Part shown: in pieces, positions 2,200 through 56,439 of the stretch
Layout: every line of letters begins with the position of its first letter
Position numbering within the stretch: the first letter of the stretch is position 1
IMG/VR virus record: IMGVR_UViG_3300035497_000412
Length of the DNA stretch: 64,000 bases
Reading direction: 5' to 3' (one strand)
From: a virus
Lineage: Duplodnaviria > Caudoviricetes
Translations under genes and position numbers: made by a program
Notes under the pieces: model-generated
What the model was told of the DNA's origin: nothing
Databases searched by the model: none
What the model saw: only the letters and a program-made list of their open reading frames with translations

Positions 2200-2889
2200 T
2201 GGCTACTGTTATTCGATATACTAATACTGAACCTCATTGCTATGAGCCTTATGTTGGTTCAGATTTTGCGGCTGGAGCCGATCTCAAGGCAATTAGGGAT
2301 TATACAATTAATCCAGGAGAGACAGTTATGGTAAAAACTGGAATCGCAATTGAGGTTCCTACTGGTTATTTTGGTGGAATCTTTGCGCGAAGCGGTTTGG
2401 CTACCAAGAAGGGTTTGCGGCCAGCTAACGCGGTCGGTGAATAATTATTATTTCGTTGTAATAACGCCGACTTTAAATTGGGTAAAATCGGTGAAACCTT
2501 CCAAAATTTATATAGGTAATACCGAGGTAAGCAGTTAGATAGCGTAAGGCTAATTGCCACCGTAGAGCGTAGAGGGTGAATAAATATAACCCCTCCAAGA
2601 GTACCCAACACGAAAGTGAAAATGTACGCCGAACTTATATGATGGTAAAATATAAGAACTAAAGGATAAAAAGCCTTTAGGGTAACAAATGGTTATTGAT
2701 TCAGATTACCGTGGAGAGCTTATTGTGGCGCTTCATAATGACTCAACAGAGCCGCAAACAGTTGAAGAGGGAGAGCGCATTGCACAGCTAATTATCATTC
2801 CTTATCTCCCTGTTTCTTATCATCACGTGGATTCTCTTTCCACTACTGTCCGTGGCGCAGGCGGATTTGGTTCAACTGGTACTAAGTAA
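2199..2889 (+). CDS. dut: Trimeric dUTPase, split by a group I intron (exons 2199-2438 and 2692-2889)
   Basis: AAGADL, ARSGLA, spliced motif NAVG|VIDSDYRGE, ERIAQL and RGAGGFGSTG. Confidence 0.95.
2439..2691 (+). ncRNA. Group I intron in dut (253 nt, no ORF)
   Basis: 5' exon ends GTCGGT, pairing with IGS GCCGAC (U.G); ATAAC pairs with 3' exon GTTAT (P10); P7 GCGTA/TACGC; ends in G; removal restores dUTPase motif III in frame. Confidence 0.9.
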
Positions 2890-3374
2890 TGAAGCTTTTA
2901 TCATTAGACTAGAGTAGCCACACTTCTGGATATGCAATTTTTTCAGATGAAAATTTGACTTCATATGGAAAGTTTACTTTCAATGATACGGACATGGGTA
3001 TTAGATTGAACAAAATCCGCAAGAAAGTAAAAGAATTAATCGAACAAAACAATATTGATACTATTGTCATTGAAGATATTTAGCTTCAAGGCAATGTTAC
3101 TAATAACGTATAGACTTTTAAAACTTTAGCAGAAGTTTTTGGAGTTATCTATGAATTGACTACTGATATGAATATTCCATGTAGTTGTGTTTTAGCCAGT
3201 TCTTGGAAATCTACTCTTGGAATTAAGGGAAAAACTCGTCCAGAACAAAAACGCAATGCTCAAAACTTTGTAAAAACTACTTATAATGTTTTAGTCACTT
3301 AGGATGAGGCTGATGCTATTTGCATTGGGTGCCACACGGTTAAAAAAAATTTAAATTTCAATTGGACTGATTAA
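2889..3374 (+). CDS. ruvC: RuvC-like Holliday junction resolvase (4 in-frame TAG=Gln)
   Basis: With TAG=Q: MKLLSLDQSSHTSGYA, IEDIQLQ, VQTFKTLAEVFG, WKSTLGIKG, TQDEADAICIG. TAGs at 2910, 3081, 3111, 3300; absent from the ORF track. Confidence 0.85.
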
Positions 3375-3424: not shown

Positions 3425-3856
3425 GTGTTGACTTTTATAACTGAACACGTCATAAGTATTGTTATGACTTTGATTTCCGCAGGAGCTTTAGCATTTTGTA
3501 AATATATGCACAGCAAAATGAAAGGATATCAAGCCGTCGTCCAGAAGCAAGAGCGAGAAAAGTTAGATGAAACTATCATAGCCCACTTAGAGCCAATTGA
3601 AAAAGAACTTGATGAACTGCGCCAGTGCATTAAAGAAATTGACGAAAAGGGCGACCTTCATATGAGCTTAATTCTTTCTTCTTATCGTTATAGATTAGTT
3701 TAGTTGTGTAGGGAGTATCTTCGACAAGGATTTATAACGCAAGAATAGTATGAAAGTTTATCTGATTTTTATAAGGTATATGAAGCTCTTGGAGGAAATG
3801 GATAGGCAAAGGAATATTATCATAAGGTAATGGAATTAGACATTCGTGATAAATAA
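3425..3856 (+). CDS. Membrane protein, holin-like (N-terminal TM, coiled coil, YEALGGNG C-terminus)
   Basis: ORF 3425-3703 extends through three TAG codons to TAA at 3854-3856; GGAGG RBS. Confidence 0.65.
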
Positions 3857-3858
3857 AA

Positions 3859-3900
3859 AATAAAGGGGAGACTTAATTAAAAGTCTCCCCTTTATTTTTT
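3859..3900. terminator. Bidirectional rho-independent terminator
   Basis: TAAAGGGGAGACT / AGTCTCCCCTTTA hairpin flanked by A and T runs between convergent genes. Confidence 0.85.
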
Positions 3901-4283
3901 TATTCACTTATTTTTGTCATTATGCCTGAAATTTTCTTAGACATATATTGTTTTTCTTCAGCAGAAGCTAATGCAATCATATCCATAATTTCTTCAGAAA
4001 TTTCGTGTAGATCATGCTCTAAAGCGTTCATTGTTAAGGCTTTGTCCATATGTTTTTCTTTGGCTTCAATATAAGAAGTCATATGATGTGGAGTGCCCTC
4101 TTTTTCAATGTAATAACTGTCGTCCATAGCTTTCCGAATAGAATGATAATACATAGCTTCTTCTAAATCTTTAATCATATCAATAACTTCTCCCATCTCT
4201 TGGGTATCTGCGTCCTCAAGATGAGCGAGTTGTTCTTCAGCACTGCATTCTAAAATTGCTTTCATGCGTCTCATTTTTTCCAT
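3900..4283 (-). CDS. Hypothetical helical protein (gene 5 of five-gene module)
   Basis: 127-aa ORF, GGAGG RBS, E/M/H-rich helices (EMGEVIDMIKDLEEAMYY). Confidence 0.8.
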   Translation of the reverse strand: MEKMRRMKAILECSAEEQLAHLEDADTQEMGEVIDMIKDLEEAMYYHSIRKAMDDSYYIEKEGTPHHMTSYIEAKEKHMDKALTMNALEHDLHEISEEIMDMIALASAEEKQYMSKKISGIMTKISE

Positions 4284-4297
4284 TGATTAAACCCTCC

Positions 4298-4717
4298 TTA
4301 GGCGACTCTTTCAACGATTAAATTTGCATTCTGCACACTAATGTTCTGAGTCCCTACATTCATAACACTAACTTGAGAACAACATCCACGAGGCACATCA
4401 ATAAAGATGGTGGATGCTACATTATTAAAATCATTTACTGCGCCGGGAGTTGAAATCATTTTTGTTGAGGGAACTGCTTCTCCGTCAATGGCAATTGCCA
4501 AAGACGAAGGTCCAACAGTACCTCCAGTAGGAACAGCAATATTTGCTCCAAAGGTTACACGGAATCTTGCGCGACACTGTTGCGTTAGTCCGCGTAAGGT
4601 TACTAATCCACTACCAGTTCTATGAATCATACTACAATTGCCATCTACAACAGTTGTAGTAAATAATACGTCCTGGTTAGCAGCGACTGTCTAAACAGCT
4701 ACACTTGTAATTTCCAT
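4298..4717 (-). CDS. Beta-rich protein, C1q/BclA C-terminal-like (gene 4 of module)
   Basis: Start extended through one TAG to ATG 4717 (MEITSVAVQTVAANQDVLF), AAGGAG RBS; alternating beta pattern and a CC pair. The fold call is inference. Confidence 0.65.
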
Positions 4718-4736
4718 AAATCAATTCTCCTTTTTA

Positions 4737-5739
4737 TTATGCGCCGCAGCCGCAGCCTGTTCCTCCATAAGGATAAGCCGCATAAGGTGAAGCGGTTAAA
4801 TAAGCAGGTTGTGGAATTGGACGAAGAGTATTCACCAGATAAGCGTTCTGAGAACACTGAGACAGCTGGAAGTTTGCGCCAAGTAGTTCAGTATTCTTAG
4901 CTTCTAAGCGATCGCGCAGGTCCTGCATAGTGTTAGAGTTAATTAAAGCACGAGTGCGCTCGCCCTCCTGATGAATCGCTTCTGTAATGTCGCAAGTGTT
5001 CTGCGCAGCCGCATAACGGTTCTCCATGATAGCGGAGTTAGTACGGCAACAACAATCTTGCTGAGCATAGCGATTTTCAGCAAGATTTGAATTTACTGTA
5101 TTAAAGCCCTGCGCCACAGAGCTGAAACCAGTACACAGATCACGTTGTAAACCATTAAAGTTGTTCAATAAAGTTGTGTTGTTGGCATAGAATCCATCAC
5201 ATAGACCCTACTGAATTCCACGAACGCCATTTTCCACTTGCTGGAAATTCATATCTTGACTAAGGTCAGCTCTAGTTAAAGCTCCCTGTGCGGCATTATT
5301 GCCCCACCCATTATTACCATAGCCCATAAACATGAATAAAAACAGTATGATTATCCCAAAATTGTTATCGTAAAAGTTTTTTATCTTTTACTTCTATTAC
5401 TTCTTATTTGTAATAGTTCAGCATATCTTTTCAGCTATAGAAAAGTATAAACATAAAAGTTTAAAATCTATAAGAATGTTCTCGAATAGTTGTCGCGGAC
5501 TCTTGGGTAGATTATATCTTCTCACTACCTATGCGTTGCCCCTGACTGCGGTCACCGCAGCCTTCGGTTCTGATTCCCATCTCAGGGTTCCAGCTTAATT
5601 CCGCGATTATTCGATATGAGTCACCTCATAAAGTGGCAGACATCTACCAAGCGCCAGAGTTTCCACCGCCAAAACCTTCTGCTCCAGAAGCGGCAGCAAT
5701 ATCGGATAAAGAATATCCACCTGTAGAACTATTGAACAT
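4737..5739 (-). CDS. Gly-rich/TM/coiled-coil Cys-rich protein (gene 3 of module), split by a group I intron (exons 5739-5646 and 5356-4737)
   Basis: Spliced product MFNSSTGG...NSGAW|WIIILFLFMFMG...GIQQGLCDG...QQDCCC...GCGCGA; one in-frame TAG; GGAGG RBS. Confidence 0.8.
5357..5645 (-). ncRNA. Group I intron (289 nt, no ORF)
   Basis: 5' exon TGGT pairs with IGS GCCA; P7 GCATA/TATGC (R GGCAACGCATAG, S AAGATATGCTGAACT); ends ...AACAATTTTG; splicing rejoins T|GG = Trp. Confidence 0.85.
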
Positions 5740-5773
5740 AAAAATGTCCTCCTTTAATAAAAAATATAATATA

Positions 5774-6007
5774 TTATTTAATCCCAAGCTATTGCTTGAA
5801 GGAATTAAATGCTTCATCAAAATTTACGCCTTGTTGTTGACATACATTGCGCGCCACTTGTTCAATGCCAGCTCCATCATTATGTTGAGCCATATTTAAC
5901 AAGTTTGCGGCAATTGGGTTATTAGCTTGCGTTTGTAGCAAATTAATAACTAATTGTTGAGGATTTTGTCCCTCTCTAATCATTTGAAGGAATTGCATTG
6001 GGTTCAT
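5774..6007 (-). CDS. Small Gln/Asn-rich helical protein (gene 2 of module)
   Basis: MNPMQFLQMIREGQNPQQ...; reads through one TAG to TAA at 5774. Confidence 0.75.
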
Positions 6008-6031
6008 CTTTTAATAGCCTCTTTCCCATCA

Positions 6032-6403
6032 TTAAAATTGCGCAATAGGAGTCGTCTAGGGCTAAGGCTACGCCAATGATTCTTTAAGAGAGTTAATTGT
6101 ATTTTCAAACTCTTCTCTAGTAATAAAAGACGAAGTGCTGATAGGCTAATCTGTCGGAATCTCTTTTAATTCATACATATTGAAGGATGATGTTCCATCC
6201 ATATTAATCTATTTAGTATAAATTCTGCGGTTAGCTAAATCAGGAAAATAAAACACTGACCCATCAAAATCAATTGAGGTAGCTTTAGCTTCATCTAACG
6301 AAGCTACTGGACGCCCTTTCAGCATGGTTGACTAATAATAACTATACGGAGCTGGGCGCATCATCTATTGCTATTGTTGAGGATAATTATAGTTCTGATA
6401 CAT
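6032..6403 (-). CDS. Gln/Pro/Tyr-rich protein (gene 1 of module)
   Basis: Open only with TAG=Q: MYQNYNYPQQQQQMMRP...LKGRPVASLDEAKATSIDFDGSVFYFPD; the poly-Q run is coded CAA CAA TAG CAA TAG; AAGGAG RBS. Confidence 0.8.
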
Positions 6404-6439: not shown

Positions 6440-6557
6440 TCTACATAAAGATATAGAAATTTTAAAGGACACTTTTTCTCATTTTGTCCTAAAAATTTTT
6501 CCTTTATCTTTCATAGATACCTGTAAATTTTAATCGAATCTTTTTCCTGATTTGTCC
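6440..6557 (-). promoter_or_regulatory. Two tandem copies of the putative late-promoter motif
   Basis: GGAC-aaatcagga-AAA-N14-TTTAC and GGAC-aaaatgaga-AAA-N14-TTTCT upstream of the five-gene module. Confidence 0.5.
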
Positions 6558-6569
6558 CAAAAAAAAATA

Positions 6570-6615
6570 AAAAAAAATAAGGACGATACTGTTTAAAGTA
6601 TCGTCCTTATTTTTT
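6570..6615. terminator. Rho-independent terminator
   Basis: ATAAGGACGATACT / AGTATCGTCCTTAT hairpin with A/T tails after the holin-like gene. Confidence 0.85.
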
Positions 6616-7006
6616 ATTTATCGGTCTTTTCTTTCTTAACCGTAGCTTCAATAATATTAGTAATTAAAGTCTCCAAGTCACCGACCGCCGCAGATAAATA
6701 TTCCTTAGCATCATCGTTTAAAATATTTAGTACAGCGTTTAAAGTTTGCCGAAATGCTTCTTGTTGAGCAGCTTCATCAAAATTATTAGATTCTTTAATG
6801 CTATCGACGTATGTTTGATTAGTGGCAATAACGCAATCGGTTACTGTATTAGTCAGCATTGTCATATATTTACTTAAAGTAGTATTATCAATATTTGATT
6901 GAATTTCTTGACTCTTGGCATTAATCCATTTAACCAAGAAACCTGTTAAAACTCCCAATAGAGGAATAATACAAACTTTAATAATTTCAGTAATTAATTC
7001 ATCCAT
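6614..7006 (-). CDS. Putative holin (single N-terminal TM, LL-H-like)
   Basis: Hydrophobic N-terminus (CIIPLLGVLTGFLVKWI), soluble helical C-terminus (ATNQTYVD); last gene after the tail fibres. Confidence 0.55.
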   Translation of the reverse strand: MDELITEIIKVCIIPLLGVLTGFLVKWINAKSQEIQSNIDNTTLSKYMTMLTNTVTDCVIATNQTYVDSIKESNNFDEAAQQEAFRQTLNAVLNILNDDAKEYLSAAVGDLETLITNIIEATVKKEKTDK

Positions 7007-47600: not shown

Positions 47601-50600
47601 ATTAACCAACTAGTCCATGTCTCCAGAATAATCTGGGAACATATCTTTAATAGCCTTAGAAAATTCCTCATCAGTAAGACCGGTTAATTGACTAGCGTTG
47701 CTTGCTACTATGCTAGATATATATTCTTTTGACCATCCAGAAGGAAGAGAATTAGTACCGATAGCAGTAGATAAAGACCTCTAAAGATTAGTAGTATCTG
47801 ATTTTACATCGGCGACATCAGCATTAGCATTTCCCATTAATGAAGCATATTCCGCAACAGAAGCTGCCTTTTCAGCATTTTCTATCGCAGCATCAATATC
47901 AGACTAGTCAATAGTCAATGCTCCATCTTCATTTCTATAAACATATTTAGCTAATTCAGGATACTCCTAAATAAGAGCTAATACCTCACTATTAACATCC
48001 TATAAAGCTTCCTTCCATTCTTGAGTGCCCTTAGTACAAGCATTAAGAGTTTCAACAACAGAAGTATAATCATCAAAAGCACTTGACAAAGATTCTGCCG
48101 CAGATTTAGCATCGTCATAGGCGTCAGATAAGTCACTTGCAGTTTCGGCTGCTTTCTTAGCGGCATCCGCATCAGCGTTACAAGCTTTTGTTAATGCGTA
48201 TATAGCAACAATTAAGCCACCAGCGACCAAAATAGCGACTATTCCCCCCATAGCAGTTTTCCAAGTTATCTGCGCTTTTATGTTCTTCCAAACTGTCGCA
48301 GTATTAACTTTAATGGCCGTAGTCATTCCGGCTTCAGCAAGTTCAGCTTGTTTCTCTGCTGTAATTTGTGCTCCAGTAGCTAATACATCACCAGTTTTGA
48401 CATCAATCAACTCTTTTGTGCTCTAAACCTCTTTGTCTGTCAATAAAAGATCAGCTATTTTAGCAACTAAACCTTCTTCACTAGTAGAAGTTACAAATTT
48501 ATAGACATTTCCCAAGTTTGTAAATCCAGTAGTTAGCATGGGAATAGTCATACCAAGAGACATCATAATCTATGTTGTCTTTTCCCAGGTGCTCAAATCA
48601 TCATTAGTAAATGTGTCTTTAATTGAAGACAAGGCATTTAAACCCATTCCAAAAGAAGAAATACTTTGAACAGCTCCCATGGCAGCTGATCCAATAGACT
48701 AATAAACAAGTGTCTATCCTGATATTTTTGCAGCTGCTTCTTTTGCCTAATCCCCAGCCCTTTCAGAAGCATCTCCTGATAATTCTTGTGCTTGTGCATT
48801 TTGTCGAGCTTTATCAATTAATTCGCCTATTTTTGAACTCGCAATTTCTGTTCCACCAGCAAGCGTCTTAATAGCATTATTCTAAGCCTCTGCTGAAGTT
48901 GGTACCTTCTAAAAGGCTTCTATTAATTTATTCTCCGCTTCAGCCAATTGTTCTGGCGTACTACTACTATCTTGTAAAATAGTCTCATAATTATTTAAAG
49001 CAGTAGTAAAATCATCTGTTGACAATCCTGCTTCATTCATTTCATTGGCTAACTTAGCAATAGCTTTTGCTTGATTCTCAGTAGTTTCAGTTTTATCTCC
49101 AATGGAAGCTTGTAATTTTTTAATAGCCGAACTTGTTTGTACAACTTTTTCTGCCGCATCTGATAACCTTCTCTAGAATTTTCCAAACTCTTCAGTAGGA
49201 CCTTTCGTAGCAACTGCTAAATCTTGCAAAGCATCTTGAAGAATCACTGTCGCCGCTATGATATCCTACTGAGTAGAGTTAGTGTCTCTTAATGTATCTA
49301 AATATAACCTCTATGCTTCTTTGGCTGTATTCACTTTCTCGTTATTTTCTTCTAAAATTCCAGAAGCATCCTGAATTAGTGCATTTGCAGTCTTTATAAC
49401 ATCAGTTTTATCATAACTAATAATCGAGTCGCTCTATTCGGTTAAGTTATGCTAAGCCTACACACCATATTTCTGACTCGCCTACTAAGCAGATGCTACA
49501 TAAGCCTATTCAGTTGATTGTGCCATTTTAGCAGCCTATACTGCGGCTTCAGCATAATTATTTGCAATTTTCATCGCTTCTTCTGCTGCAGCTCGTTGCT
49601 CTTTAGTCATACTTTTTGTAGCAGCATCTAAATGTTTCTATAAAGTATAAACAGATTCAAGCTATTGCCTTAAACCTTTGACTTGAGTTGAATCAGCTAT
49701 ATCCTTAGTCATTACCATAGCTAAAGAATAAGCTTCATCTTTAACTTCTTGTAATTCTCTCTATGTTACACCAGAAAAAGTTCTAAAATTATTTAAAGCA
49801 GAATTAATACCTGCCGCCATTTGGTCTTTAAACACAGAAGTTGCAATAAGACCGGCCGCAGCTAATACTCCCTTTAATCCTCCAAGAGAATTAATTAAAG
49901 AAGAAATTCCATCTAAAACTTTAGATATTGTATCATCTACGCCAATAAAGAAATCTTCATCAATTAAACTAGAATAAATTGCTTCAGCAGAAGCAGTAAC
50001 TCTATCTCTGGCAGCTTCCCAAGATTCAGCATAAATATCAGCTTGCTCTTGTAATGAACCGGTGGAACCTTCTGCAGTTGCTAAATTCGTCTAAAATGTA
50101 TCCCAATTTTCCATAAGGGAAATTAGTTGCGTATACTATCTAACCATTTACCCCTTTTCATTTCTAAAAAGGACAGACTATATCTTCTTCTCAAAAAGAG
50201 AAGTCTCCCATTTCGCTCTGGTTAAAGAGCTACGTCTTTCGACTAGTCGTTGAACCTTCTTCAAAAAATTTTAAAGCTTGGCTGCGGATTGTCCATATAT
50301 CTTTAATCTTTTTACCGTACCTTCTGCATTACCAGTTGCCATTAATCAAGTTATTAATTTGGTAATTAAAGCTTTAGGAGTTCCCCGCAATTAGAGAGAT
50401 TTTAAGCGAGCATTAGTTTCAGTTTACCCGCTACGTTTTCAGCTAAGGCGACTTGCTAGTCTTTTGATAAAGTAGACCATTTTGAACCCATTTCATCTAA
50501 AATGGCATCCATTTTTTTCAATTCGCCATTCTAATCTTTAATATTAATTCCGACTTTTTCAAGAGCCTAAGAGTAAGTACCAAGAGTAGTCCCATCGTCT

Positions 50601-55123: not shown

Positions 55124-56439
55124 TTACTCAGCAGGACGCTCAGTGGTCATAGTATCGGGATCAACCACAACACCATAATCATCCACAACATCCATAGACT
55201 TAGTTCTCTGACGCTTCAGCTCACTAGAAGCCTCGCCGCCCACGATCTGCAGGGCCGCAAGAACCTTCTTAGTCTTATTGAAACGAGTATAATCAGGGAA
55301 CGCATCCATAGTAAAGGTAAATGTCAATATCTTCCAGTAAGCTCGCTACTGCTTACTGCGTTCTCTTATGAACTGCTTATAGTTTCCTATAATGTTGAGA
55401 CTATATCTTCATCTTATTTAAATAAATAAGAGATTCCCATTTCCACTCACTTGAGTGTACTTCCTTACGGAATAGTCGTTGAACTTTCTTCTAAAAATAA
55501 GTTTTTAGAAGCTTAGCTGCTGATTGCCCAATCTTTATAATTTTCAAACATTCACGCTTGTCATTACTGACTACGTTGTAGTTTATAAAGCTCTAAGGGT
55601 TTTCCAGCAATTAAGGAATTAAACTTCTCGGCTTGTCATCAAGCCGCCAAGCGCATTTGTCCACTTGGATCTCCACTAGGAGCCATAGTAAATGTGAAGT
55701 TAGACTGAATCTTGCAGTTAGGAATCACAAACTCAGCAGGCCAGTCAACACCGTTAGTATCACGGAATGTAGTAGAAGCTTCCAGATAATAGTTACCACC
55801 GAACTTATCAGCAGTAATATCAATCTGCTGGACGCCAGAAGCCTTCTCAGTATAGTAGTCCACCAGAACCACACAGCCATCATAGAACACACTCAGATCA
55901 TCAGTAGCTTTCAGAGTAATGGTCTTATTCTCAACATCCACAGTCTCAGGAATATAAGGTTCAGAACAAACTTCACCATTCTGCATCATCATCACATAGA
56001 TGTAGTCCTCACCATCAGCATCATAAGGGACATTATCAAGGTCAATAGTCACCTCAGACACCAGATAGTCGTCATCACCATAAGAGCCACTAGAGGTCAC
56101 ATGAACATCAGCAGTCTGCTCAATAGTGTGAACTTTAATAGTATTCTCTTCATCAGGCTCAATCAGACCAGCGCCAGACAGCAGCATGAAACCAGCAGGA
56201 GAAATCAGAGCATCCTCCATGGTAAAGGTGATTGTACGCTCACCGTCCCAAGCGATCAGACGGGGGTTACCATTACCACCCTGGGCATACACTGTAGTAG
56301 CAGCACCTTCTAGACTAGAAGTCTTTAAAGTATCAAAATAAATGACAGGCTCGTTCTTATAAAAAATCTTATTGCCGACTTTTTGCGCTGCCTTAGCTTT
56401 CAGCACGACATCGCATACATTACGAACACCATACTTCAT
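55124..56439 (-). CDS. Major tail (tube) protein, split by a group I intron (exons 56439-55663 and 55324-55124; ~325 aa)
   Basis: MKYGVRNVCDV...YAQGG.GNPRLIAWDGER; spliced C-terminal motif SGDPS|TFTFTMDAFP; high-expression codon bias, no TAG. Confidence 0.85.
55325..55662 (-). ncRNA. Group I intron in the tail tube gene (338 nt, no ORF)
   Basis: Exon CCAAGT pairs with IGS GCTTGG; AAATG pairs with 3' exon CATTT; P AATTGCTGGAAA, Q AATCAGCAG, R TTCAACGACTA, S AAGATATAGTCT. Confidence 0.92.

Follow-up and report, generated by a model that had tools for sequence, protein, structure and literature searches.

What does a phage gain from a cassette of late genes that some of its close relatives can do without? 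The question is raised by a 64,000-nucleotide stretch of viral DNA (hereafter, the window) from the IMG/VR record IMGVR_UViG_3300035497_000412 (Duplodnaviria; Caudoviricetes). The window is part of a virus record of 155,986 bp that is ~91% complete. On its minus strand, between positions 6403 and 3900, five genes (g1–g5) are read under genetic code 15, in which TAG encodes glutamine. An initial annotation, made from the letters of the window, described these genes as a self-contained module rich in Cys and Gln, and speculated about a role at the spore surface. All five genes are present at these coordinates, provided that an intron in g3 is spliced out. We find that the locus is a copy of an accessory cassette carried by gut phages, which is portable, optional and expressed late. 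The central gene, g3, encodes a single-pass membrane protein with a large Cys-rich helical domain and a Pro/Tyr tail.

A constant core with exchangeable slots

Three sets of loci were compared: 51 loci from IMG/VR anchored on g4, 80 loci from bacterial genomes and metagenome-assembled genomes (MAGs) anchored on g3, and 78 loci anchored on the holin gene (g0) that precedes the cassette. The g3-anchored set comprises the best 80 of 171 confirmed stretches, and its slots were assigned by iterated hidden Markov models. Genome scans with single sequences of g4 or the holin returned no matches; a scan with a holin alignment worked, and the diverse g4 alignment contained no usable conserved stretch.

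About 130 loci, including those of unrelated small phages, share the order g1-(g2)-g3-[g4 or a 114-aa Cys protein]-[g5, DUF7841 or nothing]. The genes thus co-occur in other genomes and are inherited together, as expected of the self-contained module that had been proposed. The full order g0-g1-g2-g3-g4-g5 is seen in 45 of the 51 g4-anchored loci, and the holin-anchored set has the full cassette in 60 of 78. Around g3, slot 4 is filled in 77 of the 80 loci, and order and strand are always unchanged. In the same set, g1 lies directly upstream of g3 in ~72 loci, and g2 is found between the two in ~50. g5 follows g4 in the related large phages and in ~9 diverse loci.

Slot 4 holds either g4 (38 loci) or x114, an unrelated Cys-rich family of ~114 aa (39 loci), and no locus has both. 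Slot 5 is occupied by g5 or by a DUF7841 protein (PF25223), or is empty. By hhalign, neither g4 and x114 nor g5 and DUF7841 are related (probability <1%). A tree of 102 g3 sequences places at least 9 changes of slot-4 partner on well-supported branches, and parsimony counts 16. The cassette is thus built from a constant core (g1, g2 and g3) followed by exchangeable slots. A sixth gene, encoding a small HExxH peptidase, is present in most relatives (57 of the 78 holin-anchored and 33 of the 51 g4-anchored loci), and is absent from the copy in this window. DUF7841 is also encoded by crAss-like and Bacteroides fragilis phages (NC_055892, NC_055888, NC_055893 and others), and some of these phage records label it 'RNA polymerase sigma factor/ubiquitin-like protein'.

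The cassette is optional and is expressed late

Three relatives (loci L157, L158 and L163) have an empty site, in which the same holin is followed by the same convergent arm, with its transmembrane (TM) protein and RuvC genes, and no cassette lies in between. Four others (L166, L174, L182 and L196) are deletion variants. From the empty sites and the deletion variants together, we conclude that the cassette is optional. In L174 (6281-6616), an in-frame fusion joins exon 1 of g3 to the gene of the HExxH mini-peptidase, and in L182 (6272-6767) and L196 (6109-6712) only a remnant of g5 and the peptidase are kept.

The surroundings of the cassette vary with the phage. In small annotated phages such as Dulem virus 33 and Butyrivibrio phage Ceridwen, it stands after the lysis genes and before the integrase, and in Clostridium perfringens phage CPD1 its neighbours are early and replication genes. 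When the flanks of diverse loci were scanned in batch against Pfam, endolysin and holin families (~20 of 117 open reading frames, ORFs) and tail genes were found upstream, and integrases, dUTPase and HTH regulators downstream. In three diverse g3-anchored loci, AgrB genes (PF04647) are located directly upstream of the cassette; they may be phage-borne quorum-sensing genes of the agr type.

The late genes of this phage require TAG to be read as glutamine. g1 carries 8 TAG among its 123 codons, and 8 of the 13 glutamines of its product are encoded in this way. The tail and holin genes run in the same direction as the cassette, and tail-fibre genes precede the holin. Because g1 is locked to the recoded state in this way and the cassette runs with the late genes, its expression is late, as the initial annotation had supposed. 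The reading of TAG as glutamine is itself justified by g4, whose residue 9 is encoded by TAG at an alignment position where at least 90% of the family (83 diverse relatives) have Gln.

The timing bears on the idea that the cassette serves lysogenic conversion or superinfection exclusion, in which a membrane complex made by the prophage would alter the cell surface or block incoming phage. In its favour, the cassette is optional and mobile, has its own promoter-like element and terminators, and in temperate relatives lies in the classic moron position, between the lysis genes and the integrase. However, g1 of this phage, with its 8 TAG codons, is untranslatable in an unrecoded host, so that expression needs the late recoding state and not a silent prophage. 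The cassette is also always co-oriented with late genes, and a PADLOC search at E≤1 matched none of the five proteins to any family. We consider this explanation very unlikely.

g3 is a membrane protein encoded by a split gene

An intron divides g3 into two exons. Exon 1 (5739..5646, minus strand, as are all parts of the gene) holds the first 31 codons and 1 nt; it encodes an acidic, Gly-rich N-tail and ends ..GCT TGG T. The intron (5645..5357) has 289 nt, is structured and group-I-like, and contains no ORF. Exon 2 (5356..4737) encodes the TM segment (WWIIILFLFMFMGY), a Gly/Asn/Trp linker, a long helical Cys region that includes CCC, and the Pro/Tyr tail ending in GCGCGA. In the unspliced gene, a short ORF from 5739 gives the Gly-rich N-tail, and the main ORF is open only from ~5387. 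The match of this main ORF to phrog_16490 (unknown function, E 1.8e-14) starts at profile position 53, indicating that it lacks its N-terminus. Full-length intronless homologues of 236–242 aa read ..AWWIIILFLFMF.. over the gap, and the intronless P0002, P0003, P0004 and P0007 read ..AWWIIILFLF.. over the splice junction. These homologues read through the junction and thereby fix the exon and intron coordinates. The spliced product has 237 aa and contains the Gly-rich flanks, hydrophobic segment, CCC and terminal GCGCGA that the initial annotation had ascribed to it.

The g3 family comprises 4,485 matches. Its TM segment carries aromatic belts, ~9–10 Cys residues (including CCC) are nearly invariant, and the Pro/Tyr tail of the family ends in GCGC. 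The conserved Cys residues lie in the motifs GLCDGFY, RDLC, QQCCC and NTCDI. The N-tail is acidic on average, with 4.4 Asp and Glu against 1.1 Lys and Arg. The AlphaFold 2 (AF2) monomer is helical, with one helix of 90 residues; its low confidence (mean predicted local distance difference test, pLDDT, 50) makes it unusable for a fold search. A complex prediction with three copies of the post-TM region of g3 and three of g4, from the cognate pair P0004/P0167, scored 0.00.

Homologous introns are found at the identical site of g3 in loci L011, L029 and L036, and of the 73 pairs predicted for the four sequences, 21 have undergone double changes that compensate each other. These two observations establish that the intron is real and structured. 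Its boundaries (..TGGT|AGATG..TTTTG|GGATA) resemble those of group I introns, in that U is the last nucleotide of the 5' exon and G the last of the intron. The exon UGGU can pair with a GCCA that lies 9 nt inside the intron, which would form a P1 with U.G at the splice site. On the other hand, the covariance model of group I introns, RF00028, which represents the conserved catalytic core, does not score this intron, either at E≤1 in a 3.5-kb search or at E≤10 in a search of 341 nt. The same model scores 84–93 bits when applied to other introns of this phage or to a second intron that g3 has in relatives. The boundaries and the covarying structure, in a genome that has RF00028-positive introns, point to group I as the probable class.

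Two bona fide group I introns are located in the giant late-gene region of the window, at 50154-50455 and 55376-55717 on the minus strand (RF00028 90.8 and 83.5 bits). The second, Rfam-positive intron of g3 (93 bits) occupies a site distinct from that of the present intron (the WW site) in L035 (5394-5646) and L038 (7390-7642). This second site in related phages makes g3 an intron hotspot.

g4 adopts a C1q/TNF fold

In this copy, slot 4 is filled by g4 (4717..4298, minus strand). Its 139-aa product is predicted to be a stand-alone beta jelly roll of the C1q/TNF type, similar to ExsF and to the C-terminal domain (CTD) of BclA, with a conserved GCC. Its family has more than 6,000 relatives in 723 clusters at 50% identity, and the PHROG match is phrog_20016 (unknown function, E 1.5e-53). 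The best 150 of the 723 cluster representatives are 71–196 aa long, mostly 135–155, and the family is therefore a stand-alone one.

The AF2 model of g4 has a pLDDT of 98 and a predicted TM-score (pTM) of 0.90. Searched with Foldseek, its top matches are the F-BclA CTD, ExsFA, BxpB and the BclA CTD, with E from 3e-8 (9h38) to 1e-6 (1wck). Independently of Foldseek, VIA-align gave Z 17.2 for 9h38 (F-BclA), 16.3 for 1wck (BclA) and 14.9 for 7r1m (ExsFA), compared with 10–15 for animal C1q/TNF domains and 9.4–12.9 for phage fibre knobs.

The BclA and F-BclA CTDs (PF18573; 1wck, 9h38) are C1q/TNF domains from the exosporium nap and the F-ENA tip of the Bacillus cereus group. The g4 model shares their jelly roll over its full length, with 120–122 residues aligned at an rmsd of 1.8 Å and 16–21% identity, and with a similar C-terminal strand. 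However, g4 begins at the first beta strand and has neither an exosporium leader nor a collagen-like GXX stalk, and it is encoded by phages, including those of non-spore-formers. BclA_C (PF18573) was not matched at E≤1 in the Pfam search, and neither TIGR03720 nor any other NCBIfam model matched g4. A profile built from 83 relatives found no BclA or ExsF chain among the PDB sequences at E≤10. Judged from the model, the likeness to BclA and ExsF is one of fold only; the resemblance to BclA and C1q domains pointed out initially holds at that level and does not extend to the sequence.

ExsFA and BxpB (7r1m, 8d02, 9h3d) are comparable in another respect, being small stand-alone TNF-fold proteins of similar size to g4, with 129 residues aligned. 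They differ from it in having 11% identity with no relation at the sequence level and an exosporium context, and in the GCC that is conserved in g4. ExsF trimers dock the Pro-rich leader peptides of BclA and F-Anchor (PMC12357932). By analogy, a trimer of g4 may plausibly dock a Pro/Tyr-rich tail, for example that of g3 or the N-terminus of g1.

The fold of g4 brings up the explanation that the host forms spores and that the cassette alters their surface (exosporium or crust). The proteins are also coat-like in composition, being Cys-rich or Q/P/Y-rich and devoid of signal peptides. Against this stands the range of carriers. Their hosts range over Clostridia, Negativicutes, Gastranaerophilales and Treponema, and the cassette is frequent in contigs of non-spore-formers, subject to the caveat of MAG binning: Phascolarctobacterium, Megasphaera, Mollicutes, ~10 Gastranaerophilales/Vampirovibrio loci and 4 Treponema loci. 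The spore idea fails because the host range includes these bacteria. The missing sequence link to BclA_C, the lack of a collagen stalk and exosporium leader, and the tie of expression to the late lytic phase also speak against it. The cassette thus appears not to be a spore-surface kit, and we regard a spore role as extremely improbable.

The same fold is common at the tips of phage fibres. This suggests another explanation, that the cassette encodes an optional, virion-associated fibre or adhesin, in which g3 would form the coiled-coil shaft, g4 or x114 the knob, g5 or DUF7841 a chaperone and the HExxH peptidase a maturation protease, the whole being a dispensable decoration of the particle. 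The TNF-like knobs of the Sf6 tail needle (3rwn), PRD1 P5 (1yq8), the cyanophage A-1(L) fibre CBD (8ke9) and the TM4 gp23 receptor-binding domain (9n6a) share with the cassette the superfold and the logic of a coiled-coil shaft with a trimeric knob. The knob slot, like receptor-binding modules, undergoes frequent exchange; the cassette is optional, late and beside the tail-fibre genes, and the partners lack a signal peptide. Yet these knobs match g4 less well (Z 9–13) than BclA does, and they are fused to their shaft and encoded among tail genes, whereas g4 would be a knob on a separate, swappable gene. The shaft-like g3 has a TM segment, and such a segment with aromatic belts is unusual in a fibre. 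Moreover, the carriers include named podo- and siphoviruses as well as a large phage with fibre genes of the T4 gp34 type, for which a common attachment site is hard to imagine. The position of the cassette in phage CPD1 does not fit, and similarity to tail or fibre PHROGs was not found. A fibre seems unlikely to us.

The remaining proteins

In the 123-aa product of g1 (6403..6032, minus strand), the N-terminus is rich in Q, P and Y and the C-terminus is helical, and ~55 aa form a conserved core, for which the alignment shows the motif LKGRPVsS..IDfDGS..IYTKq. The family includes at least 7,466 proteins, all unnamed, and g1 matches phrog_21718 (unknown function, E 3.5e-5). g2 (6007..5774, minus strand) encodes a helical protein of 77 aa, rich in Gln and Asn (NPQQ type), for which Pfam, PHROGs and NCBIfam gave no significant family match. 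g5 (4283..3900, minus strand), in slot 5, encodes an acidic helical protein of 127 aa.

Taken together, the five proteins have no significant match in Pfam or NCBIfam, and their PHROG matches are to families of unknown function. In agreement with the initial annotation, none of them matches a head, tail, lysis or replication family, and the same is true of defence families. Profiles of g1, g3 and g4 run against PDB sequences gave chance or coiled-coil matches only, and in the ESM Atlas one g3 homologue and one g1 homologue fell in clusters of viral hypothetical proteins only. None of g1, g2, g4, g5, x114 and DUF7841 has a hydrophobic or signal-like segment; g3 alone has one of TM grade.

Boundaries of the cassette and its neighbours

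The cassette is bounded by two terminators, as the initial annotation had seen. Upstream, the holin gene g0 (6614..7006, minus strand), which lies outside the cassette, encodes an N-terminal hydrophobic helix and matches phrog_13712 ('holin', E 2.9e-32). It is followed by an intrinsic terminator (6615..6572, minus strand) that a terminator scan resolved as a 19-bp stem and a T-run, and a hairpin is found at the same post-holin position in relatives. Downstream, the sequence shows a hairpin (GGGGAGACTT..AAGTCTCCCC) with T-runs on both sides at about 3851..3895, a bidirectional terminator to which small-RNA models of the terminator type also align.

Between the holin terminator and g1, the promoter-like region contains two copies of an 18-nt motif (6557..6540 and 6489..6472, minus strand), against 0.12 expected by chance. 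The two tandem motifs that had been reported are thus real. Their status as a shared late motif is not established, because no further copy occurs in the window or in the 134 fetched loci. Relatives keep the terminator and, after it, a promoter-like element, TTTTTGGCWAAA..TATAATG, before g1. We conclude from this conservation that the cassette is a transcription unit of its own across the lineage.

The holin next door raises the explanation that the cassette is a lysis accessory, in which g3 would act like an i-spanin or a T-type holin of T4 (an N-terminal TM segment and a large helical Cys domain), with its partners regulating or completing the disruption of the envelope. The cassette directly follows the holin here and in 60 of 78 relatives, and in many unrelated phages it comes after an endolysin or holin. 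Phage lambda Rz is encoded near the lysis genes and has an N-terminal TM segment and a helical domain with Cys, and the architecture of g3, with its TM segment, coiled coil, Cys residues and Pro-rich end, recalls it. The only Amidase_2 match of the phage lies outside the window, at G000:C1:97209-97508 (locus L135; E 2e-11, in an open frame of 344 aa), ~35 kb from the holin. The holin and the putative endolysin are therefore not adjacent in this genome, and we count this in favour of a lysis role.

In contrast to two-component spanins such as lambda Rz/Rz1, however, the cassette has no lipoprotein partner: only g3 has a hydrophobic N-terminal segment, and the other proteins carry neither a lipoprotein nor a secretion signal. 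It is common in phages of single-membrane Clostridia, where no spanin is needed. The empty-site relatives keep the same holin without it, small carrier phages already have a standard holin and endolysin, and matches to lysis families in PHROGs or Pfam were not found. A lysis accessory is, in our judgement, quite unlikely.

On the plus strand, a convergent arm faces the cassette. At 99-1105, it encodes the end of an anaerobic ribonucleotide reductase (NRDD/Gly_radical) and the activase (Fer4_12/Radical_SAM), from which we take the host to be an anaerobe. A RuvC-like resolvase gene follows at 2889-3374 and needs four TAG codons to be read as glutamine. The last gene of the arm (3425-3856) converges on the cassette terminator and encodes a 143-aa protein with an N-terminal TM helix, matching phrog_4105/4257 and, weakly, DUF5446. 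In L157 and L158, two of the empty-site relatives, the holin gene is immediately followed by the gene of its homologue.

Discussion

The reading that we tentatively prefer is that the cassette makes a late, membrane-anchored, Cys-rich rod with an exchangeable cap, which has a role at the envelope or outside the cell. As the lytic cycle ends, the rod and its partners would probably assemble at the membrane, on its cytoplasmic side; this placement is suggested by g3 being the only hydrophobic protein, by partners that lack signal peptides and by the acidic N-tail of g3. g4 would then be a cap, probably trimeric, or a docking piece for a Pro-rich tail, as ExsF is. The structure would probably become exposed only once the holin and lysin open the cell, and its cysteines could then cross-link. 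Its role would be to aid the progeny, in an extracellular or envelope-associated form, while being dispensable for virion production and lysis.

A more specific proposal, which is possible and which we hold with more doubt, is that the product is a previously undescribed kind of phage nanostructure: a membrane-nucleated, cysteine-cross-linkable rod with exchangeable caps, freed at lysis and acting outside the cell. It might tether or aggregate progeny and debris, bind gut glycans or shield virions.

Several points weigh against the preferred reading of a membrane-anchored rod. Homology assigns a function to none of the five proteins. The structural model of g3 has a low pLDDT (50), the topology follows from charge bias alone, and the cysteines could bind metal instead of cross-linking. 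In a comparison limited to eight independent pairs, no region of g3 was seen to follow the swapping of slot 4, the best ratio for any segment of the protein being ~1.5. Host labels come mostly from MAG bins, so that mis-binned phage contigs may be among the carriers.

Standard gene calling misses the cassette here for two reasons: TAG is recoded to glutamine, and the central gene is interrupted by an intron that escapes Rfam. A paper on the g1, g3 or g4 families or on DUF7841 was not found in the literature. In gut and rumen viromes, the relatives of g1, of g3 and of g4 each number in the thousands; they are unnamed and belong to no Pfam family. Phages that differ in tail type and infect several bacterial phyla share the order of five or six slots. 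A mobile, conserved yet optional late cassette of such frequency represents a sizeable blank in phage biology. It is open to experiment, since Butyrivibrio phage Ceridwen and several Clostridium perfringens phages are cultured carriers. If the cassette builds an extracellular or envelope structure, the lytic cycle would have an extra stage, and the C1q/TNF fold known from BclA would gain a role beyond spores. If that structure is a nanostructure released at lysis, the cassette would represent optional 'exit-stage' equipment of a new class, common to gut phages whose hosts span many bacterial phyla.

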